Shown piece after piece: positions 18,589 to 55,089 of a stretch of DNA of 64,000 nt. The DNA lies in NCBI GenBank assembly GCA_049303835.1, contig JBAQNN010000002.1:94492-158491 (forward strand), read 5' to 3'. The stretch comes from Minisyncoccia bacterium. Its GTDB lineage: Bacteria; Patescibacteriota; Minisyncoccia; Phycocordibacterales; UBA9973. Within the stretch, counting starts at the first letter, position 1. Every line of letters starts with the position of its first letter. Made by a program: the position numbers and the translations under genes. A model generated the notes under the pieces. That model searched no databases and was not told the DNA's origin. It saw nothing but the letters and a program-made list of their open reading frames with translations.

Positions 18589-18597
18589 TTATCCACA
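18589..18597 (+). promoter_or_regulatory. perfect DnaA box TTATCCACA (extended TAGTTATCCACA, TAG = ruvC stop)
   Basis: Read directly. Confidence 0.5.
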
Positions 18598-25556: not shown

Positions 25557-25624
25557 TGTTTTTATCTTACACTATTTATAAAACAGGGGGTATATGTAAT
25601 ATCTTATTAACTATGTTGATAAGC

Positions 25625-25633
25625 TGTGGATAA
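25625..25633 (-). promoter_or_regulatory. perfect DnaA box (TGTGGATAA on + strand) in dnaA-rpmH spacer
   Basis: Read directly. Lies in the dnaA upstream region. Confidence 0.6.
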
Positions 25634-25710
25634 GTTTGTTGCCGGCATGATTTGTTTATCACACAAGACTTGGATTTGATAAAAACCGGATGATGTTATA
25701 TACTACCTGT

Positions 25711-25845
25711 ATGTCACAAACATATCAACCTAAAAAGAGAAAAAGAGCAAAAGCCCATGGATTTTTAGTTAGATCTAAGACCAAAACAGGCCAAAAGGTT
25801 CTTTTAAGAAGAAGAAGAAAAGGACGAGCGAAGCTCTCTGTTTAA
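25711..25845 (+). CDS. rpmH: 50S ribosomal protein L34
   Basis: Own translation (44 aa, below track cutoff): [44 protein letters not shown]. Confidence 0.9.
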
Positions 25846-30980: not shown

Positions 30981-31012
30981 AACTCAGCCTAATTATATCA
31001 TATCTGCTTTAC

Positions 31013-31047
31013 AACTTTATAACTTTCAACTTTTGAACTTTATAACT
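31013..31047. repeat. five degenerate 7-8-nt direct repeats AACTTTNN (AAAGTT in mRNA sense)
   Basis: acAACTTTatAACTTTcAACTTTtgAACTTTatAACTa directly after the virB4 stop. Followed in mRNA sense by TGATATAAT. Confidence 0.6.
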
Positions 31048-32893
31048 ATTGTTTACCCTCAGTTTCCGCTCTCTCCTGCTCCTCCTTGGCTTTTCTGTTT
31101 GAAAGTATTTGGGAAGGGTCGGAAGTGATTATCTGGTCTTCAGTATAAGAAGAAATGACTTTTATGGCTACATGCTTTAGGCCGGCAAAGAATATTCCCT
31201 CCCCGAGGCCTGACTCCAAAAGCAGATATTTTTCTTCATCCGTCAGGTTGAAGGTTTTTTGTAAAATATCTATAGTGGTCGGTGATTGTTTAAGGAGAAG
31301 TTGAATAGAAGAGTTTGTAATGATGGGGACACCATAAGGAGATTTCATAAAGTCGGCGGCGTCTTGGGTGATGGTGGAAAGACCGAGATAATATTTTCTA
31401 CCTCTTTTGGCGATAGAGTATAAGAATGAAGCGGTGTCTTCAGATTTCATCATCCACCAAGCCTCATCTACTACCAAGAGGCGCTTTTTCAAATTTTTTC
31501 GTACGGTATTCCAGATATAATGCATGATGATATACATGGCGACGGGTTTTAACTCGTCTTCCATGTCGCGGACGGAAAATACTACGAATTTTTTATTGAT
31601 ATCCACATTGGACGGTCTGTTTAAGAATGTCGCCCAAGAACCCCTCGTATATTTGGCTAGTCTGGTGACGATTGAATCACTTCCATCCATCCCTCCGAGC
31701 ACCATTTCAAAATCTGACAGAAGAGGAGGTTCAATGTTTGAGAAATCAGATTCAGGAGTGATATCTTTCATCGCATAAGTTTCGGAAATAGCTCGGTCTA
31801 CCATTGAATCTTCTTCAGGGGTGAGTCCGCCTAGCATCAATCTGAAAAGCCCTACCAAGTTTATGATATTTGAACGGAGGACATCTTCGGCTGTTTCGCC
31901 TTCGTGAGGAATAGGTAAATCAAAAGGATTGATGTGGTGATCGGAAGAAAGAGAAATATTGAAATATCTTCCACCGACCGCCTCTGACAAGAACTCGTAT
32001 TCCCTTTCCGGATCTATCACTATGACATCAACATCAAACATTAAAGATCTCAAAATTTCTAGCTTAGTGGCATACGATTTTCCGGAGCCGGACTTGGCAA
32101 AGGTCACGGAGTTGTAATTCTCTAGTGAAAATCTATCAAAGATGACTAGGCTGGAATTGTGCCTGTTGATGCCGTAAAGTATTCCTTTGTTGGAAGTCAG
32201 GTCAAAAGAAATAAATGGGAATACACTACTAAGTGGTTCAGAATTCAACTTCTGATGAATACCAAGTATGTCTGTATTTATGGGTATGACGCTCTTAAAA
32301 CCGTCTTCTTGTTGGAAGAGAGCCGGTTTGATATAGATGAGTTTTGATTCAAGGATTGATTTTATCTCATTTTCTATTTTGAAAAGTTCCAACTCGTTGT
32401 CGGCATAAATGGTGATGTAAATACCCACATCAAACATTTTTTCTTGCGCTTGGATCAGATTATTGCGCAGGCCCTCTAGGTCTTGGTAGGCAGTATCAAG
32501 CATAGGGTCGCGCACCATACCCTTACTCTCTCGTACACTTATCTGACTCTGCACCTCGGCGACTTTTTTCTGAAATTGTCTCAAGACCAGAGAAGTGTCT
32601 ATCGGATGAATAAAAATTGAAATATCAAAAACTTTATCCAGATTGATTATAGGAGAGAACCAATTGTCTGTCAGAAATCTAGGATAGGAAATGATGAAAA
32701 AAGTACGAGCGATTTTATCTCCCAAGCTTATGGATTTAGACGATATTTTCAGAGCTGAAGGAGCGATGACATCTTGGAGCTCCAGGGTGGCGGATTGGTA
32801 GATTTCTTCCGGCATCACTGCCAAGACGGAAGCTCTCACTTCCTTTTCCTCCCCTCCTTTTTGTCCACCTAATAATTTTTTTAAAAAGTCCAT
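31046..32893 (-). CDS. virB4: VirB4/TraE-type T4SS ATPase, C-terminal 3/4 (split gene, part 2)
   Basis: 615 aa, Walker A AKSGSGKSY, Walker B LLVVDEAWWMM, ITQDAADF. The N-terminus matches the DxIAPS...yP region that sits at about aa 215 of single-chain Gram-positive VirB4 homologues. Confidence 0.85.
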   Translation of the reverse strand: MDFLKKLLGGQKGGEEKEVRASVLAVMPEEIYQSATLELQDVIAPSALKISSKSISLGDKIARTFFIISYPRFLTDNWFSPIINLDKVFDISIFIHPIDTSLVLRQFQKKVAEVQSQISVRESKGMVRDPMLDTAYQDLEGLRNNLIQAQEKMFDVGIYITIYADNELELFKIENEIKSILESKLIYIKPALFQQEDGFKSVIPINTDILGIHQKLNSEPLSSVFPFISFDLTSNKGILYGINRHNSSLVIFDRFSLENYNSVTFAKSGSGKSYATKLEILRSLMFDVDVIVIDPEREYEFLSEAVGGRYFNISLSSDHHINPFDLPIPHEGETAEDVLRSNIINLVGLFRLMLGGLTPEEDSMVDRAISETYAMKDITPESDFSNIEPPLLSDFEMVLGGMDGSDSIVTRLAKYTRGSWATFLNRPSNVDINKKFVVFSVRDMEDELKPVAMYIIMHYIWNTVRKNLKKRLLVVDEAWWMMKSEDTASFLYSIAKRGRKYYLGLSTITQDAADFMKSPYGVPIITNSSIQLLLKQSPTTIDILQKTFNLTDEEKYLLLESGLGEGIFFAGLKHVAIKVISSYTEDQIITSDPSQILSNRKAKEEQERAETEGKQ

Positions 32894-32900
32894 AATTGTA

Positions 32901-32975
32901 TTTAGGCTTTAGCTTTTAGGCTCTAGGCTCTAGCTTTTGAGTTTGCTAATGCCTAAGGCCTAGTTGCCTAGCGCC
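32901..32975. repeat. heptad hairpin element copy A, (NNTAGGC)n - loop - (GCCTANN)n
   Basis: TTTAGGC TTTAGC TTTTAGGC TCTAGGC TCTAGC / ttttgagttt / GCTAAT GCCTAAG GCCTAGT TGCCTAGC GCC. It fills the gap between the two virB4 parts. Confidence 0.8.
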
Positions 32976-33614
32976 CTACTCTATTTTAATCTTACCCTCC
33001 AATTCTCCGGGGTTGAAAACTTTATAAAATACTTCCACTACTTCTTCGGTATTCAGCTGGGCCGAATTTATTCCACAACGAGACAATCCTTGCTGGATGA
33101 CAGCTACCCTCTCTTCTAGTTGAGATCTCTTCTCTTCAAAATCTATCTGTTTTGCGGCTCGCACTTCTTCTGAATTCTTTTTGGAAAATAGCTTTCCCAA
33201 TATCCCGGAATCTGATTTTAAAGTTGTACGTGAATATGGTATTACAATAAAGAAGTTTTTTGTCATGATACTGACAGATTCAGTAAAGCTTCTTATAAAC
33301 TCTATATATTCCCTAGTTTGCAACTTGATCAACGGCTCATTTTGCACTTTTACTCTGTTTTCTAAAAGGAGTAAATAAGGTCTGATGTCCAGCCTTCTGG
33401 ATTGGACTGATATCTGTACCGGAAAATCCAAGGTGTTTAAAAAATTTTGAAATTGAAGAATGGTCGCATGTTGTTCATCGGAAGATTTCAAGGATAGGTT
33501 GACCGAGTTTGCGAGTACGATGGCTCGGAGCTCACCTTCTTTTAGCACGATGATGCCATCGCGTATCTCTTTGATTGGTATAAATTCTTGTGTTGCTTTT
33601 GCTTTTAATGCCAT
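32976..33614 (-). CDS. virB4: VirB4 N-terminal domain (split gene, part 1)
   Basis: 212 aa, ATQEFIPIKEIRDGIIVL...NLSLKSSDEQHATILQFQNFLNTLDFPVQI resembles the N-terminus of Tn916 Orf16/PrgJ-type VirB4 (recalled from memory). Confidence 0.65.
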   Translation of the reverse strand: MALKAKATQEFIPIKEIRDGIIVLKEGELRAIVLANSVNLSLKSSDEQHATILQFQNFLNTLDFPVQISVQSRRLDIRPYLLLLENRVKVQNEPLIKLQTREYIEFIRSFTESVSIMTKNFFIVIPYSRTTLKSDSGILGKLFSKKNSEEVRAAKQIDFEEKRSQLEERVAVIQQGLSRCGINSAQLNTEEVVEVFYKVFNPGELEGKIKIE

Positions 33615-33623
33615 AAATTTTTT

Positions 33624-33700
33624 CTAGGGCTTTAGGCTCTAGGCGTTAGGCTTTAGCTTTTGTTTCGCTAGAGCCTAGTGCCTAAGGCCTAGCTGCCTGC
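33624..33700. repeat. heptad hairpin element copy B
   Basis: CTAGGGC TTTAGGC TCTAGGC GTTAGGC TTTAGC / ttttgtttc / GCTAGA GCCTAGT GCCTAAG GCCTAGC TGCCTGC. The last 12 nt supply the end of the prgI-like ORF. Confidence 0.8.
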
Positions 33701-34129
33701 ATTTTTCTTTTTACTCAAATCAAGCACGTCCAAGCTCCAGGCCAAATCTCGCAACCTACTTCCATCCAATTTTGAACTGACATTTGGCAGTACTTCATTT
33801 TTATTTTCATCCATGTTTGTAGTTTGCGATTTATTATTTGCTACCCTACCGGTCTTCTTCTTCCAAATATAAAGTTTGTTTTGAGAAAAATATTTAAACC
33901 CTGCTTCAATCATGTTTATAAAAGGCTTATTGTTTGGTTTATAGAAAGTAAGAGCTAAAGAAAACCCGGCGATAATCAAAATAGGGATGGCGCTAAAGAC
34001 GAGCCCTAATAATTTATAAAGCACAAAACACAAACCTGCTCCGCCGGCCAAATAAGCAAACTCCCTAAAAGTAAAAGGGCCGAATATTTTATCTTCTATT
34101 TCTAAAAATTGTGGAACCTTGAATTGCAT
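33689..34129 (-). CDS. PrgI-family (VirB3-like) two-TM T4SS protein
   Basis: MQFKVPQFLEIEDKIFGPFTFREFAYL then two TM helices. I prefer the ATG at 34129 over the track GTG at 34141. Confidence 0.65.
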   Translation of the reverse strand: MQFKVPQFLEIEDKIFGPFTFREFAYLAGGAGLCFVLYKLLGLVFSAIPILIIAGFSLALTFYKPNNKPFINMIEAGFKYFSQNKLYIWKKKTGRVANNKSQTTNMDENKNEVLPNVSSKLDGSRLRDLAWSLDVLDLSKKKNAGS

Positions 34130-34140
34130 AAATACAGGCA

Positions 34141-34542
34141 CTAGGCTTTAGGCGCTAGGCTCTAGCTGAGAAATTAGTTTATTCAACATTTTCATAATTT
34201 CTTCTAATAAAGAACCCACTTTATTATAATCTAATTTTGCAGTTTTGGGTAATTTTTTAGATATTATTAGCTGAGTTTCTAGCTCCGCACCAGAAGCAAA
34301 GGCAATAAGTAAGAATCTTTTGAATTCTGGAATTCCTCCTCGCATTTTCCCTTCTGCAATATTAGAAGGTATGGATACTGCCGCCCTACGAATTTGTGAG
34401 GTTAAACCATAAATTTCTTCCTTCGAAAATTTGTCTGTGAGTTCATAAACTGCTATTACAAGCTCTATCGATTTTTGCCACACGACTAAATCTCTATATG
34501 TTTTCATGTGTTTTTTACTAGCGCCTAATGCCTAGAGCCTAG
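34141..34542 (-). mobile_element. heptad hairpin element copy C carrying a four-helix-bundle (IVS-type) gene in place of the loop
   Basis: Left arm 34141-34166: CTAGGC TTTAGGC GCTAGGC TCTAGC. Right arm 34518-34542: CTAGC GCCTAAT GCCTAGA GCCTAG. By hand pairing the arms form a ~26-bp helix around the ORF. Confidence 0.55.
34148..34507 (-). CDS. four-helix-bundle protein (23S rRNA intervening-sequence protein family)
   Basis: 119 aa, MKTYRDLVVWQKSIELVIAVYELT...SIPSNIAEG...AELETQLIIS, the signature pattern of this family. The last codons (LEPSA) are encoded by the repeat arm. Confidence 0.85.
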   Translation of the reverse strand: MKTYRDLVVWQKSIELVIAVYELTDKFSKEEIYGLTSQIRRAAVSIPSNIAEGKMRGGIPEFKRFLLIAFASGAELETQLIISKKLPKTAKLDYNKVGSLLEEIMKMLNKLISQLEPSA

Positions 34543-35127: not shown

Positions 35128-38127
35128 CTAGTGTCCTCCGTGTCCCGCATCGTGTCCAGCATCATGTCCCCCACCAGAAGGCGCTTCCGGAGGATGTTCG
35201 TGTTTTGGTTCGGCAGATGCCTTTGGTGTGGCGTGTCCTCCGCCTCCCTTTCCTTCTTTCTTGTGGCCACCTTCTTTGTCGTGCTCTTCCTTATGGAACA
35301 CATCTTTATCTTTTCCTAGATCATATTTTTCTTTTTCAAGTCTCCTCATTTGATCTGGTGCGGTTTTTAGCCTATTTAATTGACCCAGTTCTGTTGTGGC
35401 TTTAAACGCAGCATTCTTTATTGCAGTCATTCTAGGATCGTTATCAGGAACGTTCTGCTTGACAAGCTCTTGAAGTTTTAAATCTTCCCTCTTCATAGTA
35501 AACGTGAGTTGGGCTATTCTCTTTTCTACCCCTTTCAGATTGACTTCATCTTTACCGTTTTTATTTTTTTCAACCAGTTTAGTGATTTCTCCCGAAATGT
35601 CGTCTTTTACCTCCATATTTTTTCCTTCTTCCATTATTGTAGTTAAATTTTCTAACGCCACAGTATTCTCTGTCAACCTGTCTTCTATCTTTTGTAGTTT
35701 TTTATGCCCTTTTTCAATATCAGTGGCGAATGATCCCTGGGCCGCTTCTCCCGTGCCTTTTACTCCCGTAGCTTCCTTGAATTTTCTGGTCACTCCAAAC
35801 GCTGCTGCTCCGGCTGTTGTGACCTTTGCCGCCGTAGCTATACCCGCTATACCCGCGATACCACCGATTCCAGCAAGTGCTGCTGCCACCCCAGCTTTCA
35901 TTACAACCTTCTGGGTTCTTCCTTTGTTTATATCGTCTATTGTGGGTTCTTTGTGTGCTTCTTTAAACATTCTCTCAAATCTTTCTTTGTCGAATCCACT
36001 TCCTTCTCTTGTTTGTGCTTCTTTTTCTGCATCCTTTTTTTCTTCAGCCCAGTTCTTATATTCTTTTGAATCTTTGTAATTGTTTTGGTCAACCATTCCA
36101 CCACTTGCTTTCAACAAAGAACGCGCGAGAGAAGCCGTTAATCCATTTTGTCCGAAGTTATTTATAAATTCTTTCATTCTGTCGTGATTGAGTTCATCCG
36201 CCGATTTGTATCCCTTTGGTCGCTCACCGTTTTTCTTCTTAAATTCTTCCTCACTAATTCCATTCTTCTTTGCTATCGCAAGATTACTGTCGTATTCATC
36301 TTGTTTTTTCTTTGACCATGCTTTTACTTCGTCACCACTCATACTTGTTTTATAGAGCTTTGATTCTTCTTCTAATTTCTTCTTTTGCTTTTCTTTTCGT
36401 CCTTGGTATCCTCCCTCATTTGCAGAACCCAAATTTATGCCGGTTCCGCTTACAAATTTCTTTCCAAGACCAGTGGCCCGAATATCGAAGGATGCCTTTG
36501 ATCCATAATCTGCTGTTTTTAGCATCTTTCTTGCTGCCCAACCAGTGAACCCCCTTTCTTTATTGTTTGCGGCGGTTTTTAGACCCTCACTGCTTGCAAC
36601 TTTACTCGATATCGCGCCTATTGCTTGTGTTGCCATAAGCGATGTACCTCCTGTAGCAGCACCCAAGGCGAGTCCCCCAATTAGTTTTGCACCAGTCATC
36701 AATTTTTCTCCCAAGGCGCCGGAACCCTTTTTGGCATATTCTGTAGCTTTGAGTAAGAGAATTAGAATTACTAAGGCAGGAATTATGATGAGCAAGATAG
36801 TTTCTATGAAGCTCGCGTTTGATTTAGAAATAATTTGGTCAAATATCTTTGCTTGAATCAGCATAAATATAAAATACATAAAGAACATGAAAATCGGCGC
36901 CATAAAAGCGGTTTTAAGCAAACGTTTGAACCAAGCATCCCAACCCAAATATTCAACACTACTTAAAATTGGAATGGTTGAAGACATAAAAGCAAAAGGA
37001 GAGAATATAATTAGAACAAAAAGTTCAATCATACGGCCCACAAAGCTGATGCCGGCAACAAAAAAACAATATGCGGCAAAAAACATGAGCACTCCAGCGA
37101 TGATTGTGATTCCAATCAACATACCCCCAGAAACTTCAGTTGAAGCTTTAACTCCTCCTATTTCTTGGGTTTTAAGTTTTGCAAAAAAATCTGGGGTTAA
37201 TAAACTAGTTGGATTGAATGCGTTTACCATACCACCAGCGACATCCTTTTCTCCATTTGCCGTGTTTTGATATTCCCGTACTTTACCATCTGCGTTTACT
37301 GTGTTGACTTCCATTTTATTGTAAAAAACCAAAGCCAAAACATTAGAAGTATCAATAATTACTTGAGTAAAGAACATAGAAAAGTTTATCAAGAGAGCAA
37401 TAACGATGACTTTCACTATCATTTTTTTTGCATCGTGTCCCGCTAAATCTAAAATTATTTTTATAGCGATAAAAAGGAGAATGAGTATAAAGAAAATATT
37501 TGAAAGATCTCGAACTACACCCCAAGCAGTAGGGATGAATGTAGAATTAGCAAACAATTTGCCACTAAGTGTGATGAATATTAAAACATTAAAAAAATAA
37601 GCTGATAACCACAACAAGAAAGAAGGAATAACATAAAAAAGACCATAAGATGCCTGCACAAAACATCCGGGATAAAAGGAAGAGTCACTTCCTCCTAGCC
37701 CGGTTACTCCAAATCCGCAAATATTTTTTCCAATTTCATTCTCAAATGCAGTTTTTGGGCTATTTGTATTTTGTACATCTGTTCCATCTGCCGCTGCATC
37801 AGATGCTTTTGGTCTCCACTGCCCCCCTCCAGCTTCACAAACACTTTTTGTCTTTTCAGTTACTACACTATTTGTGGTACAAATTCCGGTTACTTCGTCT
37901 TTATTGTCTGGAACCCATCTTTTAGTAAAACCCTCAAGTAGTTCAAGATCCGTACATTTTTGTTGTGTTTCAAACTTTTCTCTTCGTATTATATCGCCAT
38001 TCCTATTTGAAACTTCACAGGTTCCTGTTCCTGTTTGTGCCTCTACTTTCTCAGCCATCCCAAATACCCCGCCCAGTACGATGAGTATCAATAAATATGG
38101 TATTATTTTTTTTACTCTATTTTTCAT
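35128..38127 (-). CDS. polytopic membrane protein, VirB6/TrbL-like, with Cys-containing N-terminal ectodomain, long coiled-coil tail and His/Gly-rich C-terminus
   Basis: 999 aa: signal peptide, about 8 TM helices between aa ~150 and 480, charged coiled-coil region. Ends with GGGGHATPKASAEPKHEHPPEAPSGGGHDAGHDAGHGGH. Confidence 0.5.
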   Translation of the reverse strand: MKNRVKKIIPYLLILIVLGGVFGMAEKVEAQTGTGTCEVSNRNGDIIRREKFETQQKCTDLELLEGFTKRWVPDNKDEVTGICTTNSVVTEKTKSVCEAGGGQWRPKASDAAADGTDVQNTNSPKTAFENEIGKNICGFGVTGLGGSDSSFYPGCFVQASYGLFYVIPSFLLWLSAYFFNVLIFITLSGKLFANSTFIPTAWGVVRDLSNIFFILILLFIAIKIILDLAGHDAKKMIVKVIVIALLINFSMFFTQVIIDTSNVLALVFYNKMEVNTVNADGKVREYQNTANGEKDVAGGMVNAFNPTSLLTPDFFAKLKTQEIGGVKASTEVSGGMLIGITIIAGVLMFFAAYCFFVAGISFVGRMIELFVLIIFSPFAFMSSTIPILSSVEYLGWDAWFKRLLKTAFMAPIFMFFMYFIFMLIQAKIFDQIISKSNASFIETILLIIIPALVILILLLKATEYAKKGSGALGEKLMTGAKLIGGLALGAATGGTSLMATQAIGAISSKVASSEGLKTAANNKERGFTGWAARKMLKTADYGSKASFDIRATGLGKKFVSGTGINLGSANEGGYQGRKEKQKKKLEEESKLYKTSMSGDEVKAWSKKKQDEYDSNLAIAKKNGISEEEFKKKNGERPKGYKSADELNHDRMKEFINNFGQNGLTASLARSLLKASGGMVDQNNYKDSKEYKNWAEEKKDAEKEAQTREGSGFDKERFERMFKEAHKEPTIDDINKGRTQKVVMKAGVAAALAGIGGIAGIAGIATAAKVTTAGAAAFGVTRKFKEATGVKGTGEAAQGSFATDIEKGHKKLQKIEDRLTENTVALENLTTIMEEGKNMEVKDDISGEITKLVEKNKNGKDEVNLKGVEKRIAQLTFTMKREDLKLQELVKQNVPDNDPRMTAIKNAAFKATTELGQLNRLKTAPDQMRRLEKEKYDLGKDKDVFHKEEHDKEGGHKKEGKGGGGHATPKASAEPKHEHPPEAPSGGGHDAGHDAGHGGH

Positions 38128-38176: not shown

Positions 38177-40564
38177 TTAAAACGTATCCTCTCCCGCATG
38201 TGTATAGTCCGTCTTATTAGATCTAAAGACAGAGTTGCAATCTATGTCTGCACTGATTCTTTTATCTGTTTCACCTCCACCCAACCAGCTACAAATTCCA
38301 GTACAGGTAATATCTCCGTAAATATTTTTTGCATTGACTATAGGAAGATCTTTGTAGCCTTCTTCTCCCTCGTCATTGTTTTCGTTTCTGAAGGTGAAAG
38401 ATTGCCCTTGGTTAGAGGAATCTGATCTTATTATCTCTCCATGGCTATATCCAGAAACTATCGGAATGCTACAGAACTTTGCAAGTTCCGTCATTTGTCC
38501 ATGTTGTTTGCTTTCTCTTCCTCCAATTTTGTCCCAGTCAGCATTTTCTCTCTGTCCTTCACATTCTGTAGCCATATTCTTTATACTATTCCTTTTGTCG
38601 TTTAGTGAGTCCACATCTGATCTAGCGTTTTCTATTGTTATAGAAGATGAAACTGAAGATTTTATTGAATTATATTGTTTCTTTAACAGAACCATAGTTT
38701 TTTCCTGGGCAGAACCAGCTTCTGGTTGTGTCGCTATCGCCGCTAAGCCTGTTTTTTGTGCCGCTTTTTCGTTTCCTGCTATCGCCTTTAACCTTGCAAG
38801 CGCCTGAGCTTTTTCTCTTTTTATTCTTATAGCTTCGTCCATTTTTTCTGGAAAACCATCCATATTACTTATCTCCTCTAAATACAATATTGAGTTAGGA
38901 AGTTCATTTATCATTCTCATTATCACCCAATCCTTAAAGGAATCTACTGCAAACTTTAATTCTCTAACAGCATCAGTCGCTGCTTTTATTTTTAGATCAT
39001 CATCCCCAGCCTGATCTTTTTGTAGTTTATTTACAATTCTTCCCTGTTCTTCTTTTAATCTTTTTTCCCAGTTTTTGTCTGGTCCAGGAATACACTGGTC
39101 TAGTTTTTCAGCAAGTTGAGAGATCCCAAGACTTTCTGGATTAATATTATTTATTAGTTTCGGTATTATTTCTAGAAGAATTATTTCAGTTTCTGTGTTT
39201 GCTATGTCCCCAGGTATATAGGTACCATTACCAGTATTTCCTATTTCCTCGATCGTTTCTTCAGCACCTGTTTCTGGATTGATTTTTGTAACAATAGTTT
39301 TTCCATGCAATTGTTTTTTAAATTTATCTAATATGATTTCTTCGTCAGGCCCGGAGTCCCAGGACGAGTTAGCTCCTCCCTCATCAGGGCTTCCAAGAGT
39401 TAGCCCATTATAGCTCCAATCGTCCACTACAGGCTCAGGGTTTTTCTTGCTTGCTAGGCTATTTAGCCCGTCTCCTATGAATTTATTTAATAAAGCATCA
39501 AAAATGGTTGAAAGACTATTCCCCATAGCTGCTCCGAGTTCACTTTGGCGAAAGTTTGATCCTAGGGCATTTGTTATCTGGCTTGATACGACAGCGCCAG
39601 GAGTTGTACTTACTAATCCTCCTGGACAAGTATTTTCTTCTTGCCAATCTTGTTTTTCAGTTGCAACCCCATTTTGATAATCCATGTTGTAATTATCACA
39701 CCGCGTCTTTTCTTCTGGTGTTGGTTGTCCGTCGATGTTAAACTGACAAAAACTCTCATCATATTTTTGTGATGGCTTGAAGCTCGGTCTCTGAAATTCG
39801 TTCACTCCATTATTGTAGGATGGATTTGATGGACAAGTTTGTGGAGACAAGAACCCCATTCCCTGTTGTAGGGTTGTTTGTACCTTCTGTGCAGCTGTTT
39901 GAGTGGTTCCTTGTACTCGTCTAGCGAGTTCTTCTGTAGCGAGCATTTGGAAGCCTAGATAATTGTTTTGTGGATATTGAGTGTTTATGAGGAAAGCATC
40001 CCAGCCCCCTACATTGAAATTATTTTGATAGTTGCGAAGTTGTACTGGGTCAGTCATGACCTTACTCAAAGAATATGCTGCGTTATCACTGAGTTGTCTT
40101 TTATATGCGTTTATTGTGTTTAAAGCAAAATCTTTACCAAAAGGATATTTTAGATTGTCATAACCGAATGTGTCTACTAAATTTTTTACTTCTGATTTAG
40201 CGATGTCTTCAAAAAATGATTGTGGGTTTTCTAAAAAGAGAGGGCTTCCATGAAAACCCGAATTTATCCAGTTTACAGTACTTTTTGTTATCTCTTGTAG
40301 GGCTTTTCGGGCTACGGCTTGCAAAACTTGCTTCAAGATTTCTTGATACCATGTTTGTACAGCCTTTGAGGCAGTTATAGCGTTGGAGGCATTTCCTTGT
40401 ATTCCCAACGCAACCTTTATTCCACTCCATATCCCCCCCAAGATATCCATTACAGTAACTGCCTCAGCCTTCCTTGGTTCAATAAATAAAAAAGAGGGGA
40501 CAAGAATCATAATTAGCAGGAAAAGAGAGATTAACTTTTGAATTTTTGGGTTCTTAAAAATCAT
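38177..40564 (-). CDS. large secreted/anchored protein of unknown function (T4SS-like operon)
   Basis: 795 aa, N-terminal hydrophobic anchor ending ...PRKAEA, several Cys pairs, no motif recognised. Confidence 0.55.
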   Translation of the reverse strand: MIFKNPKIQKLISLFLLIMILVPSFLFIEPRKAEAVTVMDILGGIWSGIKVALGIQGNASNAITASKAVQTWYQEILKQVLQAVARKALQEITKSTVNWINSGFHGSPLFLENPQSFFEDIAKSEVKNLVDTFGYDNLKYPFGKDFALNTINAYKRQLSDNAAYSLSKVMTDPVQLRNYQNNFNVGGWDAFLINTQYPQNNYLGFQMLATEELARRVQGTTQTAAQKVQTTLQQGMGFLSPQTCPSNPSYNNGVNEFQRPSFKPSQKYDESFCQFNIDGQPTPEEKTRCDNYNMDYQNGVATEKQDWQEENTCPGGLVSTTPGAVVSSQITNALGSNFRQSELGAAMGNSLSTIFDALLNKFIGDGLNSLASKKNPEPVVDDWSYNGLTLGSPDEGGANSSWDSGPDEEIILDKFKKQLHGKTIVTKINPETGAEETIEEIGNTGNGTYIPGDIANTETEIILLEIIPKLINNINPESLGISQLAEKLDQCIPGPDKNWEKRLKEEQGRIVNKLQKDQAGDDDLKIKAATDAVRELKFAVDSFKDWVIMRMINELPNSILYLEEISNMDGFPEKMDEAIRIKREKAQALARLKAIAGNEKAAQKTGLAAIATQPEAGSAQEKTMVLLKKQYNSIKSSVSSSITIENARSDVDSLNDKRNSIKNMATECEGQRENADWDKIGGRESKQHGQMTELAKFCSIPIVSGYSHGEIIRSDSSNQGQSFTFRNENNDEGEEGYKDLPIVNAKNIYGDITCTGICSWLGGGETDKRISADIDCNSVFRSNKTDYTHAGEDTF

Positions 40565-46341: not shown

Positions 46342-48669
46342 CTACTCTTTAATTTTTAATTGGTCTAATTTTCCAATCTCCGCTGCTTTTTGTAATGCCC
46401 GCGCCATATACTCTCCGTTTGTTTCAGCCCTGAGGTGGAGAGAGGCCAAACCTCTTGGTTTGATGCCCGTGATTGTGGCGAGTTTATTAAGATAAATTAA
46501 TTTAGGATCGGAATCTTCACCTATCTTACCAAAATGAACCCAGTTTTTAGCCTTTAAATTACTGAAGCTTTCCCATTCGTCTCTGTCTTTAAATATATGT
46601 TCTACGTTGTGTCCGTGAACTTTCAAAGCCCGAACCAAAGTTTCTCCATCTAGATGAAAAGGGTTGTTTGCAAACTCTGGATGATGATTCAAAAAGTCAT
46701 TCTCGTCTGGAGAAAGTCCTGGGAAGTAGTACTGTGGGCCACCCATATTCATACCAGGGAATCTAGAATCATAATAATAATTTGTTCCACCTGGTCCGCG
46801 TCCTGGTTCTACCGCTCCTCCGACGCCTATCCTTGTGCCTGTCCTGATTGTGTTGTTTGGTGTGCTCATTTTTTCTAGTACTTTTGCCCTGGTGGCTTCA
46901 ACGTCAGTATGCGTATCTACACGAGATACTTCTACTTTTTCTGGAAAATTTTCCGTTTCAAATTTGTGTACTGGAGGGTAGGCTTTGTCTCCCAAGTGAA
47001 AAGATTCTGGCGTTTCAGAGTATGGGTTTCCTTTAATATTAAAAGGTGAACTTGTGGTCTCGGGATGAGAAGCTGAAGCTACTGTCTCAACTGTGGGTGA
47101 CTTCGGATGTTTATATTCGTATTTTTCTGTGTCTTCCTCAAATTGTGACCCAGAACCATGTTCTTCTACCAGTCCACTTCCGACTTTTAGTTCATCAACT
47201 TTTAATTCTCCATTTTCTAATTTAAGCTGATATGCCACTTCATTTGCCGGCCTTACCCATATCTCTTCACCCGTAACCTTATCTACGTAACCATGTTCTA
47301 AGGCGACTCTGTGCGCTGCTCCACCAGAAAATTCGTACAAAGCTTTTGTGTCATTCACATCTCCTTTAAAACCTAGGCTCTTTGCGAGCTCTGTATTTTC
47401 CACTATTTGTCTTCTAAACGCGTGTTCTATTCCTTCCCCTTTTTGTATAATTGCTGTCTCGTCTGGTTTGATAGTTTCTGTTGCGCCAGTCGTGGCGGAT
47501 TCAGTCTTTATGCTTTCCGGTGTTTCGGTGTCAATTTCTGTTTTTAGATGTCCGGGCTTTGTTTCAGGAGTATCCAAGTGACCAGCGGAGGGATGTAATA
47601 TTTGACCCATTCCATAACCTGTTCCTATTGATGCCGCTCCGCCGACTACCATACTAGCCATAGCTTTTCCTATTAATCTGTTTCTTTTGCTTTTTTGTTC
47701 CTTCTCTAATATGTCAGCGTAAGTTTTTTTAACTTCAGATAAATTTCCTTCTCCAAAGAACTCTGCCAGCTTTTGTTTTGCGAGTTCTCTTTCTTCTTCT
47801 GATTTGTCTTTAAAAATTAAATCATAAAGTTTTGCTGTTCCTTGTCCGGCACCTAGCCCGACGAACGTACGTGTTGTTTTTATACCTAAATAAGCAAGAC
47901 TTCCTCCAGCTGCGGCTACTGAGCTAGGTAAAACTGTAAAAGCAAATCCCGCTGATAATGCGAAAGACATAGCAATTTTTGTGGGTCTTTTTTGCACCAT
48001 ATACCAATCCAAAAGTTTTTTTGCTAGATTTTTTTCTTTTGGTGGCAGATTTTCTGCTTTTAAAGCATTTAGTTTTGTTTGCTCATCAATTATAACTTTA
48101 GTGAAAATTTCATTTTTTGTCTTTTTTGCTGAGAACATTGCGTTTCCGTATTCTACTGTAGCTTTTTCGTATTCTTTTTCTAACTCTTTTAACTCCGGAG
48201 GAATTTCAGAGTCTTCTATTTTCGCTCCGAAAATAAATCTTTTAGCACGAGTAAATTTTTCAGCTCCGGCCAAAAACTTCTTGTATTCTTCCGCATATTT
48301 TGCTCTAGCATCATCTAGTCTTTTTTCTACATCTAATATTGGGGTGGGTGCTACTTCTGTTGGGGTAATTTTTAAACCTTCTTTTTTCTCCCGGATTGTA
48401 TCTTTTAAGACGCTTATTTTATTATCAACAGTTTCTTTTGCGGAGGAGAAAACTTCAGTTAGATCAGAAAAAGACTCAAATTTTGATGATTGGACGTTCA
48501 TTTCTTCCACTATTTTTTTTACCTCTTCCGTACCGGCACCTCTGGTCAAAGCCTCATTCATTTGATCTAAAACATATAGGTAGTGTCTCGTTACGTCATC
48601 AAACTCAATCAGCCTTTTAATAAGTAAGTCCTTATCTTCCCCGACCCCCGCACTTGTTTCTTGTTTCAT
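46342..48669 (-). CDS. large hypothetical protein with central TM segments
   Basis: 775 aa: coiled-coil N-terminal part, 2-3 TM helices around aa 225-350, unknown C-terminal domain. Confidence 0.55.
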   Translation of the reverse strand: MKQETSAGVGEDKDLLIKRLIEFDDVTRHYLYVLDQMNEALTRGAGTEEVKKIVEEMNVQSSKFESFSDLTEVFSSAKETVDNKISVLKDTIREKKEGLKITPTEVAPTPILDVEKRLDDARAKYAEEYKKFLAGAEKFTRAKRFIFGAKIEDSEIPPELKELEKEYEKATVEYGNAMFSAKKTKNEIFTKVIIDEQTKLNALKAENLPPKEKNLAKKLLDWYMVQKRPTKIAMSFALSAGFAFTVLPSSVAAAGGSLAYLGIKTTRTFVGLGAGQGTAKLYDLIFKDKSEEERELAKQKLAEFFGEGNLSEVKKTYADILEKEQKSKRNRLIGKAMASMVVGGAASIGTGYGMGQILHPSAGHLDTPETKPGHLKTEIDTETPESIKTESATTGATETIKPDETAIIQKGEGIEHAFRRQIVENTELAKSLGFKGDVNDTKALYEFSGGAAHRVALEHGYVDKVTGEEIWVRPANEVAYQLKLENGELKVDELKVGSGLVEEHGSGSQFEEDTEKYEYKHPKSPTVETVASASHPETTSSPFNIKGNPYSETPESFHLGDKAYPPVHKFETENFPEKVEVSRVDTHTDVEATRAKVLEKMSTPNNTIRTGTRIGVGGAVEPGRGPGGTNYYYDSRFPGMNMGGPQYYFPGLSPDENDFLNHHPEFANNPFHLDGETLVRALKVHGHNVEHIFKDRDEWESFSNLKAKNWVHFGKIGEDSDPKLIYLNKLATITGIKPRGLASLHLRAETNGEYMARALQKAAEIGKLDQLKIKE

Positions 48670-48779: not shown

Positions 48780-48788
48780 TTATCCACA
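48780..48788 (+). promoter_or_regulatory. perfect DnaA box (extended TAGTTATCCACA)
   Basis: Read directly. Intergenic. Confidence 0.5.
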
Positions 48789-51377: not shown

Positions 51378-52307
51378 TTATTTATTTACTATAAATTCCA
51401 CCAGAACGAAAATCAGCCAGAAAATAAATAGTAGATATCCTTCTTTTTTTGAAATGGTACGGCCCGAGCGCATAAACCGAAACAAAATAAAAGAAGCTAC
51501 CACCATAAATATTCCGGTTACATAAATTATTTTTTGAGGAAAGAAAAATGGTCTTACCAATGCGAGGATTCCGACGACGATAGTCGCGTCCGCCAATACT
51601 GTTCCTAGCAAGTCCCCGACTGCCAGAGAATCATCATTTTTACGTAGAGACTTTAAAGAAAAGAAAAATTCCGGCATAGTGGTTCCCAGTCCTACGATAA
51701 ACATTCCTACTAGTATCGGACTTATTCCCAAATAATAAGCGAGAGAGGATGCCGAAGATACTGTAAAATGAGAACCAATCAACAAGATAGACATGCTAAA
51801 TATTAGCATTAATGAATTTTTACGGTAATTATTTGTTTTGTCTGAAGGAGTCTCTCCGTCAATTCCATTTTTTAAAGCTAAATAGTAAAATATTCCTCCA
51901 GTAATGATGAGCGTCAGGCCCTCAATGCGGGAAAAATATCCGTCTAAACCCAATATGAGTGGCAACAAAAGTAAAAATGGATAGACATTGTAATTTTTGA
52001 GAATTTTACTTTCAATTTTTAATCCCCTTCCGGTTAGTAAAATTAATAGAGCAAAAATCAAAGTTAGGTCCGCCACATTTGAACCAAAAAGTACGCCGAG
52101 ACCGAAAGACGGTATTCCTTCTAGTGCAGAATTTATGGCTATAAAAGTCTCAGGTAGAATTGAGATGATAGCGATGATGATAAACCCTACCGTGTATTTA
52201 GAGAGTCTAAAACTCTCTGCTAATTGTGCAGCGTACCTGGTAGCCATAGTCGCACCTTTTATAACCATAAAAAGGGCTACCGTGAAAATAAAGATATTGT
52301 TAAGCAT
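51378..52307 (-). CDS. Ca2+/Na+ antiporter (CaCA/YrbG family)
   Basis: Two alpha-repeat regions (GLGVLFGSNVADL, GDLLGTVLADAT), about 10 TM helices. The track start at 52376 overlaps tRNA-Pro, so I use the internal ATG MLNNIFIF at 52307. Confidence 0.8.
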   Translation of the reverse strand: MLNNIFIFTVALFMVIKGATMATRYAAQLAESFRLSKYTVGFIIIAIISILPETFIAINSALEGIPSFGLGVLFGSNVADLTLIFALLILLTGRGLKIESKILKNYNVYPFLLLLPLILGLDGYFSRIEGLTLIITGGIFYYLALKNGIDGETPSDKTNNYRKNSLMLIFSMSILLIGSHFTVSSASSLAYYLGISPILVGMFIVGLGTTMPEFFFSLKSLRKNDDSLAVGDLLGTVLADATIVVGILALVRPFFFPQKIIYVTGIFMVVASFILFRFMRSGRTISKKEGYLLFIFWLIFVLVEFIVNK

Positions 52308-52336
52308 AAAATTGTGCGTATTGATCCTCTCTTCGT

Positions 52337-52407
52337 TCGGGCCGCTGGGAATTGAACCCAGTCTAAATGCTCCCAAAGCACTTGTACTACCGGTATACTA
52401 CGGCCCG
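52337..52407 (-). tRNA. tRNA-Pro (anticodon UGG), no encoded CCA
   Basis: Hand-folded: acceptor CGGGCCG/CGGCCCG (C1-G72), anticodon arm AGTGC-TTTGGGA-GCATT, T arm CTGGG-TTCAATT-CCCAG. Confidence 0.9.
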
Positions 52408-52433
52408 GATTACTTAAAAACTAAATGAGTATA

Positions 52434-52862
52434 TCATAAAATGATGTCGCTGACCACCTTTACTCTGGCTTTTTTATTTTTTAAATCCAGATATACAACC
52501 AGGAGATCCACTTGCCACTCTTTACCTTCGGAGATTTTTTCGGACAAAAGATATGTTTGAATTGTCCGTGACATTCGTTTTAGTTTCCAGGGATGCATAT
52601 TATCTTCTGGTCTGTAGTTGTTGTCTGTTGTTACATGTGAAACATTGTCTAGCGTTACACGGGAAACACTCTTTACTTCTATAAAATACAGCCTGTTATT
52701 TTTTTCAGCTATTATGTCTATCTCCCCCCATTTTTTAGTATAATTTCTTTCCAATATTGAAAAACCGTGTTTCACGAGAAACTTTTCAGCTATGTTTTCC
52801 CCAATTTCTCCTATCTTTTGGGTTTCTGATGTAAATTTTTTAGGCATTTTAATAAGTTTCAT
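52434..52862 (-). CDS. YraN-family (UPF0102) endonuclease with an internal 2 x 24-nt tandem repeat
   Basis: GEIGENIAEKFLVKHGFSILERNY...GEIDIIA...YFIEVKS. Start ambiguous (GTG 52871, ATG 52862 or ATG 52847). Confidence 0.75.
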   Translation of the reverse strand: MKLIKMPKKFTSETQKIGEIGENIAEKFLVKHGFSILERNYTKKWGEIDIIAEKNNRLYFIEVKSVSRVTLDNVSHVTTDNNYRPEDNMHPWKLKRMSRTIQTYLLSEKISEGKEWQVDLLVVYLDLKNKKARVKVVSDIIL

Positions 52863-53003
52863 GTGTAACACGTTTCACGTGAAACACTTTACTAAATTTT
52901 AGTGTCTTTTATCATAAAACCCTTACTTTTCAACGTATTTTTGATAAAAATGATCCCAAAAGACAGTTTTGAAATGTGTCCTTTATAAACATTACTAACA
53001 TAG

Positions 53004-53012
53004 TTATCCACA
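53004..53012 (+). promoter_or_regulatory. perfect DnaA box (extended TAGTTATCCACA)
   Basis: Read directly. Intergenic between yraN and tRNA-Gly. Confidence 0.5.
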
Positions 53013-53075
53013 TTTCGCAGTCTTTTTGAGTAATATCCTTTATCTGATGAGGTTTTTGATAAAGGACAAAATTTG

Positions 53076-53146
53076 TGCGGCCAGAGAGAATCGAACTCTC
53101 GTCTCATCCTTGGCAAGGACGTGTTCTACCACTAAACCATGACCGC
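53076..53146 (-). tRNA. tRNA-Gly (anticodon GCC), no encoded CCA
   Basis: Hand-folded: acceptor GCGGTCA/TGGCCGC, anticodon arm CGTCC-TTGCCAA-GGATG, T arm GAGAG-TTCGATT-CTCTC. Confidence 0.9.
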
Positions 53147-53249
53147 TCTTTGTTTGTGAACAAGAACCAGGGATTAAAAATACTGTTTGATTATAATATT
53201 TTATTGATACTAAAGCAATTACAAAAATAGCTTGAAAAATAAGCACTAT

Positions 53250-53278
53250 TTGCCAATATTTTCTGAATAGTGTAAAAT
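53250..53278 (+). promoter_or_regulatory. sigma70-like promoter (TTGCCA, 17 nt, TAAAAT) upstream of tRNA-Arg
   Basis: Read directly. About 25 nt upstream of the mature tRNA 5' end. Confidence 0.4.
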
Positions 53279-53302
53279 AACAGTGTATTATTAGATAATT
53301 CT

Positions 53303-53374
53303 GCACCCGTAGTGAAATGGATATCACAACAGTCTTCGGAACTGTCGTTGGGGGTTCGAGTCCCTCCGGGTGCA
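53303..53374 (+). tRNA. tRNA-Arg (anticodon UCG), no encoded CCA
   Basis: Hand-folded: acceptor GCACCCG/CGGGTGC, anticodon arm ACAGT-CTTCGGA-ACTGT, T arm GGGGG-TTCGAGT-CCCTC. Confidence 0.9.
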
Positions 53375-53440
53375 CAAAGTGCGGGGTACTTTGTGCAAGG
53401 CGGAGCGCGACGGCGCGAGCCAGGGTCGTGCAAATTTTCA
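53371..53440. repeat. GC-rich structured segment between tRNA-Arg and cca, sharing a 16-nt exact match with the rsmA insertion
   Basis: Hairpin TGCACAAAGT-gcggggt-ACTTTGTGCA uses the last 4 nt of the tRNA. 53404-53419 AGCGCGACGGCGCGAG equals the reverse complement of 42089-42104. Confidence 0.65.
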
Positions 53441-53450
53441 GTAGAAAATT

Positions 53451-55079
53451 ATGCCTGACCACAATAATGTTATGGAACAAGATCTAAAAAATTTAATACA
53501 AAAAATACCCAAGGAGGTTTCACATGTAACAAGTACACTAGAAGAAGCTGGTTTTGAAGTGTACCTAGTCGGCGGCTGTGTTCGCGATTTACTGATGAGC
53601 AGAGAGCCCAAAGATTGGGATGTCACTACCAATGCCAAACCGGATCAGATTATTGGTCTTTTTGAGAAAACTATTTACGAAAACACCTTTGGAACCGTAG
53701 GAGTAGTTGTTCCACGCCTGTCCGCCAAAGCCTTGGCGTCGGAGGATGAAACAACAGAAAAAGAGGTTTCACATGAAACTATGATTATTGAGGTCACTCC
53801 ATACAGAATTGAGGCAAAATATAGTGATTTTAGGCATCCAGATGAAGTAAAATTTAGTCAAAAACTAGAAGATGATCTAAAAAGACGCGATTTTGGTGTT
53901 AACGCGATGGCCCTAAGTCCTAAAGGACATCTGGTTGATTTGTTTGATGGTCTAAAGGACATCAAAGATAAGATACTTAAGGCTGTCGGAAACCCAGATG
54001 ACCGATTTGAAGAGGATGCTCTCAGAATGTTGAGAGCTGTCCGTTTTGCTTGTCAACTTGATTTTTCTGTGTCGTATGAAACAACGGAAAGTATTTTGAA
54101 AAATGCGGAATTAATAAAAAAAATTTCTGCCGAAAGAATTCGTGATGAGTTTGTAAAAATGGTTATGTCGCCGAATTCTGCGAGTGGAATGGTGATGTTG
54201 CAAAAATTTAATTTGTTAAAAAATATAATTCCGGAATTAGAAGAGGGGATAGGGTGCGAACAATCGGGCGAACACATATACGATGTTTGGAATCATTTAC
54301 TGGCCGCCCTTCAGCATGCTTCAGACAAGAATTGGCCTTTAGAAATAAGGCTTTCTGCACTTTTTCATGATATCGGGAAACCTCGTTCTAGACGAAGCAT
54401 AACTTCACCTGATGCTTTTGCTCAGTCGCTCGGTCCCTCGTTTCACTCAGCCACTCCTTCACAAAAGCATACAGGTTCAGTTTCTAAATCTAAGAAAAAA
54501 TTTACTTTTTATGGTCATGAAGTTGTCGGCGCACGGATGACAAAAAAAATAATGGAACGGTTAAAATTTTCAAACAAAGAAATTGAAGCTGTGGAAAAAC
54601 TCGTACGCAACCACATGTTCTTCTCGGACACGGAATTGATCACCCTCTCGGCGGTGCGAAGAATCATCACCAAGGTTGGGAAAGAAAACATCTGGTCTCT
54701 AATGGACGTCCGTGAGTGTGACAGGGTCGGGATGAAGAAAAAAGAAGCGCCATATCGCCTGCGGAAGTACTTTGCGATGATAGAAGAGGCACTGAGGGAC
54801 CCAATATCTGTAAGCCAATTAAAGATAAACGGCGAATTTATGCAAAAAGAGCTCGGAATTGTTCCTGGTCCCAGAATGGGGTGGATTTTGAGTGCTCTTC
54901 TAGAGGAAGTCTTAGACGCTCCGGAGAAAAATACTGTGGAACATCTCTCGGAATTAGTGAAATCTCTGAATATGCTAGGAGATGCTGAACTCAAAACTCT
55001 TGGTCTTCGTGGAAAAGAAAAAAAAGAAGAGCTTGAAGAAGAAGAAGTTGCCAAACTTCATAAAAAACACGGAGTCTAA
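53451..55079 (+). CDS. cca: CCA-adding tRNA nucleotidyltransferase with HD domain
   Basis: 542 aa, GGCVRDLL, DWDVTT, RRDFGVNAMA, HDIGKP...YGHE. Carries two apparent insertions (aa ~90-115 and ~312-345). Confidence 0.85.
   Translation: MPDHNNVMEQDLKNLIQKIPKEVSHVTSTLEEAGFEVYLVGGCVRDLLMSREPKDWDVTTNAKPDQIIGLFEKTIYENTFGTVGVVVPRLSAKALASEDETTEKEVSHETMIIEVTPYRIEAKYSDFRHPDEVKFSQKLEDDLKRRDFGVNAMALSPKGHLVDLFDGLKDIKDKILKAVGNPDDRFEEDALRMLRAVRFACQLDFSVSYETTESILKNAELIKKISAERIRDEFVKMVMSPNSASGMVMLQKFNLLKNIIPELEEGIGCEQSGEHIYDVWNHLLAALQHASDKNWPLEIRLSALFHDIGKPRSRRSITSPDAFAQSLGPSFHSATPSQKHTGSVSKSKKKFTFYGHEVVGARMTKKIMERLKFSNKEIEAVEKLVRNHMFFSDTELITLSAVRRIITKVGKENIWSLMDVRECDRVGMKKKEAPYRLRKYFAMIEEALRDPISVSQLKINGEFMQKELGIVPGPRMGWILSALLEEVLDAPEKNTVEHLSELVKSLNMLGDAELKTLGLRGKEKKEELEEEEVAKLHKKHGV
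54407..54476. repeat. hairpin-forming segment within the insertion between HDIGKP and YGHE of cca
   Basis: ACCTG.ATGCTTTTG (54407-54420) pairs with CAAAAGCAT.CAGGT (54462-54476): 14 bp with a one-nucleotide bulge, 41-nt GC-richer loop. Confidence 0.5.
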
Positions 55080-55080
55080 G

Positions 55081-55089
55081 TTATCCACA
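55081..55089 (+). promoter_or_regulatory. perfect DnaA box (TAAGTTATCCACA, TAA = cca stop)
   Basis: Read directly. Confidence 0.5.

Follow-up and report, generated by a model that had tools for sequence, protein, structure and literature searches.

The window analysed here is the whole stretch of 64 kb, part of a 232-kb contig from a metagenome-assembled genome of Minisyncoccia (Nomurabacteria/Paceibacterota), in the Candidate Phyla Radiation (CPR). It contains a cluster of short palindromes resembling parS, the site bound by the partition protein ParB, in and around two genes. One is yraN, encoding a predicted nuclease of the UPF0102 family (52434–52862, minus strand), and the other is cca, encoding a CCA-adding enzyme with an HD domain (53451–55079, plus strand). 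Inside the cluster, from left to right, are an AT-rich spacer (52887–53074, 73% AT), tRNA-Gly(GCC) (53075–53146, minus strand), a second AT-rich spacer (53147–53302, 76% AT) and tRNA-Arg(TCG) (53303–53375, plus strand). The region from 52200 to 54600 was inspected directly at the sequence level. Judging by L081, the closest relative, the yraN start is probably ATG 52847 (minus strand). After tRNA-Arg comes a GC-rich segment of 87 nt (53386–53472; 55% GC against 38% in the genome), which contains GGCGGAGCGCGACGGCGCGAGCC. Since this segment covers the annotated cca start and is not in L081, the true cca start is probably ATG 53472 (MEQDLKN...).

The array consists of eight sites, seven intact and one split. 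The initial annotation spoke of eight 14-mers and listed seven; all seven are where it placed them, and the eighth does exist, as the split site. Sites 1 to 3 are hosted by yraN. Site 1 (52629–52644, TGTTACATGTGAAACA, two mismatches to the 16-mer; orthologue at L081:3136) and site 2 (52653–52668, CGTTACACGGGAAACA, three mismatches) lie 24 nt apart in a hypervariable loop, where they read VSHVT and VSRVT on the minus strand. The 24-nt units that carry them, described at first as a tandem repeat at 52620–52667, are indeed identical at 18 of 24 positions by count (6 of 10 outside the site), and repeat finding recovers the 24-nt spacing. Site 3 (52768–52783, TGTTTCACGAGAAACT, two mismatches) is parS-like; it falls within a conserved YraN helix and is read there in the other open frame, as K-F-L-V-K-H. 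Of all the sites, it is the one most likely to be partly constrained by the protein. Its spacing of 115 nt from site 2 is also found in 24 clusters. Sites 4 (52855–52870, AGTTTCATGTGTAACA, three mismatches) and 5 (52871–52886, CGTTTCACGTGAAACA, a perfect 14-mer and 15/16 to the consensus) are non-coding, site 4 lying just upstream of the probable yraN start. The 16-nt tandem repeat reported here is found at 52856–52887, and the best copy with its flanks, site 5, reads cGTTTCACGTGAAACa.

The remaining sites are hosted by cca. Site 6 (53516–53531, GGTTTCACATGTAACA, three mismatches) encodes VSHVT in the N-terminal leader, at residues 23–27 counted from ATG 53451. The split site 7 (53708–53753) is made of TGTTCCACG (53708–53716), a 30-nt module, CCTGTCCGCCAAAGCCTTGGCGTCGGAGGA (53717–53746), and TGAAACA (53747–53753), which translate as VPR, LSAKALASED and ET. 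Site 8 (53765–53780, GGTTTCACATGAAACT, three mismatches to the 16-mer and one to the 14-mer) encodes VSHET in a lineage-specific insertion of the CCA head domain. Repeat finding reproduces the sequence GAGGTTTCACATG that the two cca copies were said to share.

Counts over the 64-kb window confine the palindrome to this place. The degenerate pattern GTTWCAYRTGWAAC has 5 exact matches against 0.01 expected, and GTTTCACGTGAAAC, at two mismatches or fewer, has 7 against 0.28 expected, a number reached in none of 100 shuffles. All 7 fall within 52630–53779 (14-mer coordinates; 52629–53780 as 16-mers), about 1.15 kb, and no site of this kind at two mismatches or fewer occurs in the window outside 52629–53780. 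The 16-mer TGTTTCACGTGAAACA, at three mismatches or fewer, returns the same seven sites and no others, with 0.45 expected. The half-site GTTTCAC occurs 13 times in the window against 7.8 expected, with 6 of the 13 inside the cluster; the isolated half-sites noticed elsewhere are therefore background.

The palindrome itself points to parS. The experimentally used parS consensus is TGTTTCAC-GTGAAACA, one review gives parS as “mainly TGTTNCACGTGAAACA”, and reviews describe the consensus as highly conserved over the bacterial groups studied so far. The clade consensus over 371 sites in 80 loci of relatives, unselected flanking positions included, is tGTTTCACGTGAAACa, and the window variants depart from parS mostly at the degenerate N position (GTTACA.../...TGTAAC) or at the central CG. 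Positions 1 and 6 of the 14-mer discriminate parS from the Noc-binding site (NBS, TATTTCCC-GGGAAATA). At both, the 371 sites are of the parS type (G1 in 98%, A6 in 88%), so that NBS identity (TATTTCCCGGGAAATA, with A1 and C6) is ruled out. Of the features by which parS is recognised, this cluster displays the match to the 16-bp palindrome, G1 and A6, a position close to the origin and conservation at the DNA level across relatives. We propose that the eight-site array is very probably the chromosomal parS centromere of this Nomurabacteria/Paceibacteria bacterium, straddling its probable origin. This proposal is directly supported by parS identity, confinement to a single locus, conservation across some 80 species, DNA-level selection, a skew switch and a DnaA box; from these we infer ParB binding, centromere function and the placement of oriC in the spacer.

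The initial annotation had suggested a duplicated operator of a dimeric regulator, and a site bound by a dimer is right in kind. Palindromy and the overlap of two sites with the yraN start region fit such a reading, as does the ability of chromosomal ParB proteins to act as local repressors. Yet it is improbable that a dimeric transcription factor uses these palindromes as operators to regulate yraN, cca or the tRNA genes, for six of the eight are within coding sequence, as far as 330 nt into cca, the skew switch falls at the cluster, and Pfam scans find no helix-turn-helix (HTH) regulator, adjacent to the cluster as had been envisaged or elsewhere in the window. Sites in promoters beside a regulator gene, as transcription-factor operators would have, are not what the cluster displays. 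Since the consensus is that of parS over 16 bp, most sites are intragenic and an adjacent HTH regulator is missing, a ParB centromere is the most likely identity, and not a duplicated operator.

Given that most of the sites are coding, is it the DNA or the encoded peptide that is conserved? Among cluster units defined by their peptide, GTT is used in 86% (baseline 27%) and ACA in 70% (baseline 26%), and the codon just before the unit ends in T in 74% (baseline 31%). The N-terminal site of cca can be anchored independently of its own sequence, by the downstream motif YLVGGCVRD, in 77 loci. There, 69 of 77 loci have TCA for Ser and 71 of 77 have GTA for Val; for the Thr within the site, ACA is used in 56%, against 23% for the Thr two codons downstream. 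Sites occur in non-coding DNA as well, and in two unrelated genes on opposite strands. Because synonymous positions are nearly fixed, beyond codon bias, the constraint acts on the DNA of the 16-bp palindrome and not on the peptide.

That V-S-x-E-T is a functional peptide motif, with the palindrome as its by-product, is accordingly the least credible of the alternatives. It can appeal to the conservation of KEVSHVT at the CCA N-terminus and to the frame GTT TCA CGT GAA AC (V-S-x-E-T), which is used by all 87 cca units examined. Of the two alternative frames of the palindrome, one has a TGA and the other (F-H-V-K) is open and is used by yraN site 3; the single frame is thus explained by the TGA together with common descent. 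Moreover, the unselected flanks complete the 16-bp palindrome, and the same sequence also stands in non-coding DNA, in a second reading frame as FLVKH, and in two proteins that are unrelated and come from opposite strands. No relative was seen to keep V-S-x-E-T while its codons varied freely. Nor are the host segments conserved in relatives that lack the palindrome, an outcome that the initial annotation had named as counting against it; on the contrary, the palindrome is kept while the loop sequence changes.

The host loops themselves are variable. In an alignment to solved CCA-adding enzymes, the conserved domain begins at residue ~25–26, so site 6 lies in a leader, and the head-domain hairpin has an insertion of 18 residues, as had been suspected, carrying site 8. 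Hypervariable between species, both in length and in sequence, the insertion still keeps 1–3 units. YraN has its variable loop between IEVKS and PEDNMH, with 0–2 units in the clade. It had been taken for an insertion after IEVKS; the segment is real, but it is better described as a hypervariable loop, since against 3FOV there is only a 2-residue gap at this point, and homologues also have a short segment there. In a wider YraN group of 150 representatives, the loop ranges from 13 to 234 aa and holds up to 7 units, and its length follows unit number with r = 0.82. The density of V..ET units is 3.0 per 100 aa inside the loop and 0.04 per 100 aa in other parts of YraN. Five homologues (P0313, P0250, P0331, P0320 and P0356) have loops of 91–234 aa after EVK(S/T), with 5–7 V-x-x-E-T units. 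Read from the YraN proteins alone, these suggest much larger yraN-embedded parS arrays in other lineages.

The relatives compared comprise 80 loci from different species, obtained by a genome scan with the CCA protein (69–83% protein identity). Every locus that covers the region has parS-like sites in syntenic positions: upstream of cca, in yraN and at its start, at about +55–65 of cca, and at about +220–330 of cca. The 371 sites lie in 136 kb of cluster sequence (2.73/kb), against 11 in 1.03 Mb of flanks (0.0106/kb), an approximately 256-fold difference. Among the 60 complete clusters, the median number of sites is 5 (range 3–8) and the median span 1.1 kb; 44 of them contain a perfect 14-mer, and their commonest site spacings are 27, 115, 16, 192 and 24 nt. 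In L081, whose CCA is 92% identical, the cluster is 84.5% identical and all eight sites are orthologous; sites 4 and 5 are 26 nt apart there and 16 nt apart in the window, through a 10-nt indel.

These comparisons bear on another suggestion, that the 14-mer is a miniature mobile repeat copying itself in frame into coding sequence. Species do differ in how many units a loop holds, 0 to 3 for cca and as many as 7 among YraN relatives; the 24-nt and 27-nt spacings are regular, and the yraN pair in the window retains some identity outside the site. We nonetheless give this reading little chance. The positions are syntenic over about 80 species. Elements of the type of miniature inverted-repeat transposable elements or repetitive extragenic palindromes have many non-syntenic copies, whereas the 14-mer has none outside the cluster in the 64 kb and 11, the background rate, in the 1.03 Mb of flanks. 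For neighbours spaced by 27 nt, the 13-nt spacers match at 4.84 of 13 positions, against 4.88 of 13 for random pairs. A recent tandem duplication in cca is thereby ruled out; the cca units must be old, or the spacing itself is conserved. The initial annotation's very small repeat spreading in frame thus holds for the local multiplication of V-S-x-E-T units in two loops but not for dispersal of the 14-mer, and such local gain and loss of units fits the parS centromere without competing with it.

The position of the cluster is equally telling. The cumulative G–C curve of the window has a flat minimum at 49–53 kb, and genes left of the cluster are mostly on the minus strand and those to the right mostly on the plus strand. 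Of 31 relatives with at least 6 kb on either side of the cluster, 29 show negative GC skew on its left and positive GC skew on its right. Since it passes from negative to positive, the switch marks an origin and not a terminus. Because the flanks share synteny and the left flank consists mostly of minus-strand genes, skew per open reading frame (ORF) was regressed on side and coding strand over 814 ORFs, with a bootstrap interval. The effect of side is +0.059 (95% interval 0.052–0.068) and that of coding strand +0.057; skew stays negative in plus-strand genes on the left and positive in minus-strand genes on the right. A by-product of gene orientation is thus ruled out.

Between the two halves of the cluster, the spacer at 52887–53074, a candidate oriC core, is strongly conserved at the nucleotide level among species with only ~75% CCA identity. 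It contains a perfect DnaA box, TTATCCACA, at 53004–53012. In 58 of 67 loci, such a box is 116–118 nt away from the last site on the yraN side. Perfect DnaA boxes occur at 1.235/kb in the spacer against 0.051/kb elsewhere, 24-fold denser. Rfam matches in the spacer are to tRNAs only, with no other structured RNA. The spacer also has a recurrent TCCTTTAT / ATAAAGGA motif at ~52979 and ~53036, inverted at 53058, and TTTTTGATAAA is present twice in it, 115 nt apart.

The dnaN–dnaA pair lies at 22.9–25.6 kb on the minus strand, with dnaA ~27 kb from the cluster, and none of 27 relatives has dnaA within 10 kb of the cluster. The DnaA of the window is canonical and has the C-terminal DNA-binding domain. 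The dnaA–dnaN genes diverge from rpmH–rnpA–yidD (read from the sequence) and yidC–jag, the classical arrangement, and the dnaA–rpmH spacer (25557–25712, ~155 nt) has 2–3 DnaA boxes, those in or near it being at 25532, 25614 and 25625. An oriC beside dnaA is unlikely because GC skew does not switch there, and for the same reason these boxes look like dnaA autoregulation and not like oriC. We place oriC, with moderate confidence, in the spacer region 52887–53302, flanked by the parS array. Further perfect TTATCCACA boxes lie at 18589–18597, 55081–55089 and 48780–48788, two of them directly after stop codons, those of ruvC (ends 18588) and cca (ends 55079). Five perfect boxes in 64 kb seems above expectation for a 9-mer, as estimated without a shuffle control.

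A cluster at the origin defined by skew could also consist of iterons for a replication protein other than ParB, such as non-canonical initiator boxes. There is a precedent of sorts, since the Ori-Finder paper proposed that Bradyrhizobiaceae use TGTTTCACG as a species-specific DnaA box. We regard this as a slim prospect, given that the genome has a canonical DnaA, that the canonical TTATCCACA box is conserved in the spacer, and that the 16-mer is a ParB site in every studied phylum.

Several points weigh against the centromere proposal and should be set out together. Site 5 is the single perfect 14-mer in the window, and the central CACGTG is altered in five of the seven intact sites, which bears on the predicted affinity for ParB. 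The 80 loci share synteny and ancestry and are non-independent. Site 3 (FLVKH) and the N-terminal site of cca lie in conserved peptide segments, where partial constraint by the protein is possible. With dnaA at a distance of 27 kb and a single conserved consensus DnaA box in the spacer, the placement of oriC rests mainly on skew. Finally, ParB as the cognate binder of these sites in this lineage is a prediction. Neither ParA nor ParB genes were found in the 64-kb window by Pfam scans of all sizeable ORFs and signature regular expressions, nor in the ±10 kb flanks of the 80 relatives or in 0.76 Mb of other contigs. Phmmer probes of Spo0J (validated as 100% identical to P0121) and Soj had no match in 2 Mb of relatives' and other contig DNA, and a ParB profile search matched only Bacillus and Caulobacter proteins, none of this lineage. 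Indirect support for a ParB comes, besides the wide conservation of the parS consensus in reviews, from Southlakia, a cultivated CPR bacterium of another class. There, adjacent genes encode ParA (K03496) and ParB (K03497, with PF02195 and PF17762), and both are growth-defect or essential genes by transposon sequencing (PMC10633639, supplement). The literature searched, that gene table excepted, does not treat parS or ParB in Patescibacteria or CPR.

By analogy with established ParB–parS systems, ParB dimers (Spo0J-type, CTP-dependent clamps) would nucleate on the 16-bp palindromes and slide onto adjoining DNA to form a partition complex. This complex would segregate the freshly replicated origin and, where SMC is present, load condensin. 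Because the genome is compact, most sites would have come to lie inside genes, housed in spots that tolerate them, which in CCA are the leader and a surface hairpin and in YraN a loop. Between species, site number would shift by gain or loss of loop units of 8 or 9 codons. In the window, one site appears to have been lost through insertion of the 30-nt palindromic module at its dyad.

This module deserves attention of its own. In the alignment, L081, L001 and L002 have an intact GTTCCACGTGAAAC where the window has the split site 7; in L081, it lies 27 nt before site 8. The split site, whose CGCCAA-AGCC-TTGGCG hairpin was recognised early on, folds as one long imperfect hairpin (−11.4 kcal/mol, z = −3.45). 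The module (~CTTGCCCGCCAAAGCTTTAGCGTCGGCGGG) has 43 copies in the window and loci against 0 in shuffled sequence, and encodes ...AKALA... in both orientations. When copies are excised in silico, parS is restored in 9 at two mismatches or fewer and in 12 at three or fewer, against 8 of 20,000 random positions. The excision point is mostly at the parS dyad, and the copies are in different cca units and in the yraN loop. Copies in relatives lie at L011:4362, L021:10255, L026:1583, L028:9232, L041:8383, L043:4626, L048:2881, L055:10237, L064:10258, L073:4422 and L078:10303; examples outside parS are L030:11153 and L077:6751, and metagenome copies are L083–L202. The remaining copies either immediately precede tRNA genes on the 5′ side or lie within other ORFs. 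When metagenomes were scanned with the core of the module, at least 120 contigs were found, of 33–60% GC and groundwater type. Among the listed matches, only 1–2 of 120 copies are inside parS, and 85 of 121 are inside open frames of at least 100 aa. A module specific to parS in general is thus ruled out. The module DNA strings do not occur in the literature searched.

The module is a multi-copy, frame-preserving palindrome with filled and empty sites between close relatives. The dispersed in-frame behaviour first attributed to the 14-mer belongs to this module, which had been seen merely as a hairpin. A variant with the core CCGAAGCTTTAGCGAAGG stands directly 5′ of tRNA genes, ~300–1200 nt left of yraN, in relatives (L008:8978, L010:7390, L022:8878 and 8995, L033:4847 and 4965). 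Its final GGCGGG overlaps the start of the tRNA acceptor stem, and a GCGGGC-TT-GCCCGC hairpin precedes.

It is tempting to join these observations into a wider picture, which we offer tentatively and as a whole consider rather doubtful. The CPR centromere would be an evolving coding array. Gains and losses of V-S-x-E-T units, each of 8 or 9 codons, in the yraN and cca loops would tune how many ParB sites it has. Selection on parS would create and size protein insertions, up to the 234 aa and 7 units of YraN relatives. The AKALA module would insert preferentially at the parS dyad, either as a selfish element targeting centromeres or as an off-switch for individual sites.

Elsewhere in the window, a conjugation or type IV-like set occupies 29017–34507 on the minus strand, with a protein combining VanY and type IV secretion system pilin domains, a TraG-like P-loop ATPase and a PrgI-family protein; it is followed by a homologue of the 23S rRNA intervening-sequence protein. 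Three very large ORFs, at 35128–38127 (999 aa), 38177–40564 (795 aa) and 46342–48669 (775 aa), have no Pfam match at E = 0.1.

If the parS assignment is correct, it shows where the centromere, and probably also the origin of replication, lies in a large uncultivated Nomurabacteria/Paceibacteria clade, at a locus ~27 kb from dnaA that is not where origin finders look first. A review lists the variation in parS number and the cause of parS clustering as open questions. The clade provides a natural series, with 3–8 sites in one syntenic 1-kb array in about 80 species, in which births and deaths of sites can be read as gain or loss of loop units, as a 10-nt spacing indel and as an insertion at the dyad. 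It would also be a clear case of constraint on a DNA-binding site, here a putative ParB site, moulding protein sequence. For annotators, there is a warning in this: the V-S-x-E-T “motifs” and loop insertions in these YraN and CCA proteins would stem from the DNA and not from protein function.

How does the array compare with known systems? Chromosomal parS sites number 10 in Bacillus subtilis (8 in the ori domain), 10 in Corynebacterium glutamicum, 3 in Mycobacterium smegmatis and 4 in Streptococcus pneumoniae, which has no ParA. The array resembles these ParB (Spo0J) systems in its 16-bp TGTTNCACGTGAAACA, in having multiple origin-proximal copies and in its degenerate variants. In chromosomes generally, parS sites are frequently intragenic. 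Unlike those systems, in which sites spread over tens to hundreds of kb, the window has its sites within ~1.15 kb astride the skew switch. Its cluster is not adjacent to parAB or dnaA, and ParB, known in those systems, is predicted here. The coding sites, moreover, sit in lineage-specific hypervariable loops whose length tracks site number. Tight clusters of parS exist in Myxococcus xanthus (22 sites), in Pseudomonas aeruginosa (four near oriC) and in Caulobacter crescentus (near parAB), and the array is like them in having several sites close together near the origin. Those clusters measure from several kb up to tens of kb and mostly adjoin the par operon, whereas the array here is sub-kb on each side of the DnaA-box spacer and gains and loses sites unit by unit, in frame.

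The short regular spacings of 16, 24 and 27 nt recall the tandem-repeat centromeres of plasmids, such as sopC of the F plasmid, with twelve 43-bp repeats that each contain a 16-bp inverted repeat. The sopC repeats are non-coding, plasmid-specific and near-identical, whereas the array has the chromosomal consensus, diverged spacers and partly coding sites. The NBS (TATTTCCCGGGAAATA) is likewise a 16-bp palindrome and is recognised by a ParB paralogue, but NBS copies are scattered and excluded from the terminus, and those of the window are clustered at the origin.

For the 30-nt module alone, the closest analogue would be the Rickettsia palindromic elements (RPEs), which Ogata et al. reportedly described in 2000 as selfish palindromes inserted in frame in protein-coding genes. 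The likeness is one of behaviour only: a multi-copy palindrome tolerated in frame in either orientation, with filled and empty polymorphism. The module differs from RPEs in its length (30 nt against ~100–150 nt), in being GC-rich in an AT-rich genome and in lying repeatedly on the parS dyad in this clade, and there is no sequence relationship. The array as a whole is a known kind of element, and what is unusual is its compaction together with its embedding in coding loops: sub-kb compaction about a DnaA-box spacer far from dnaA, hypervariable hosts that carry the sites in frame, and the insertion of a dispersed palindrome at the dyad.

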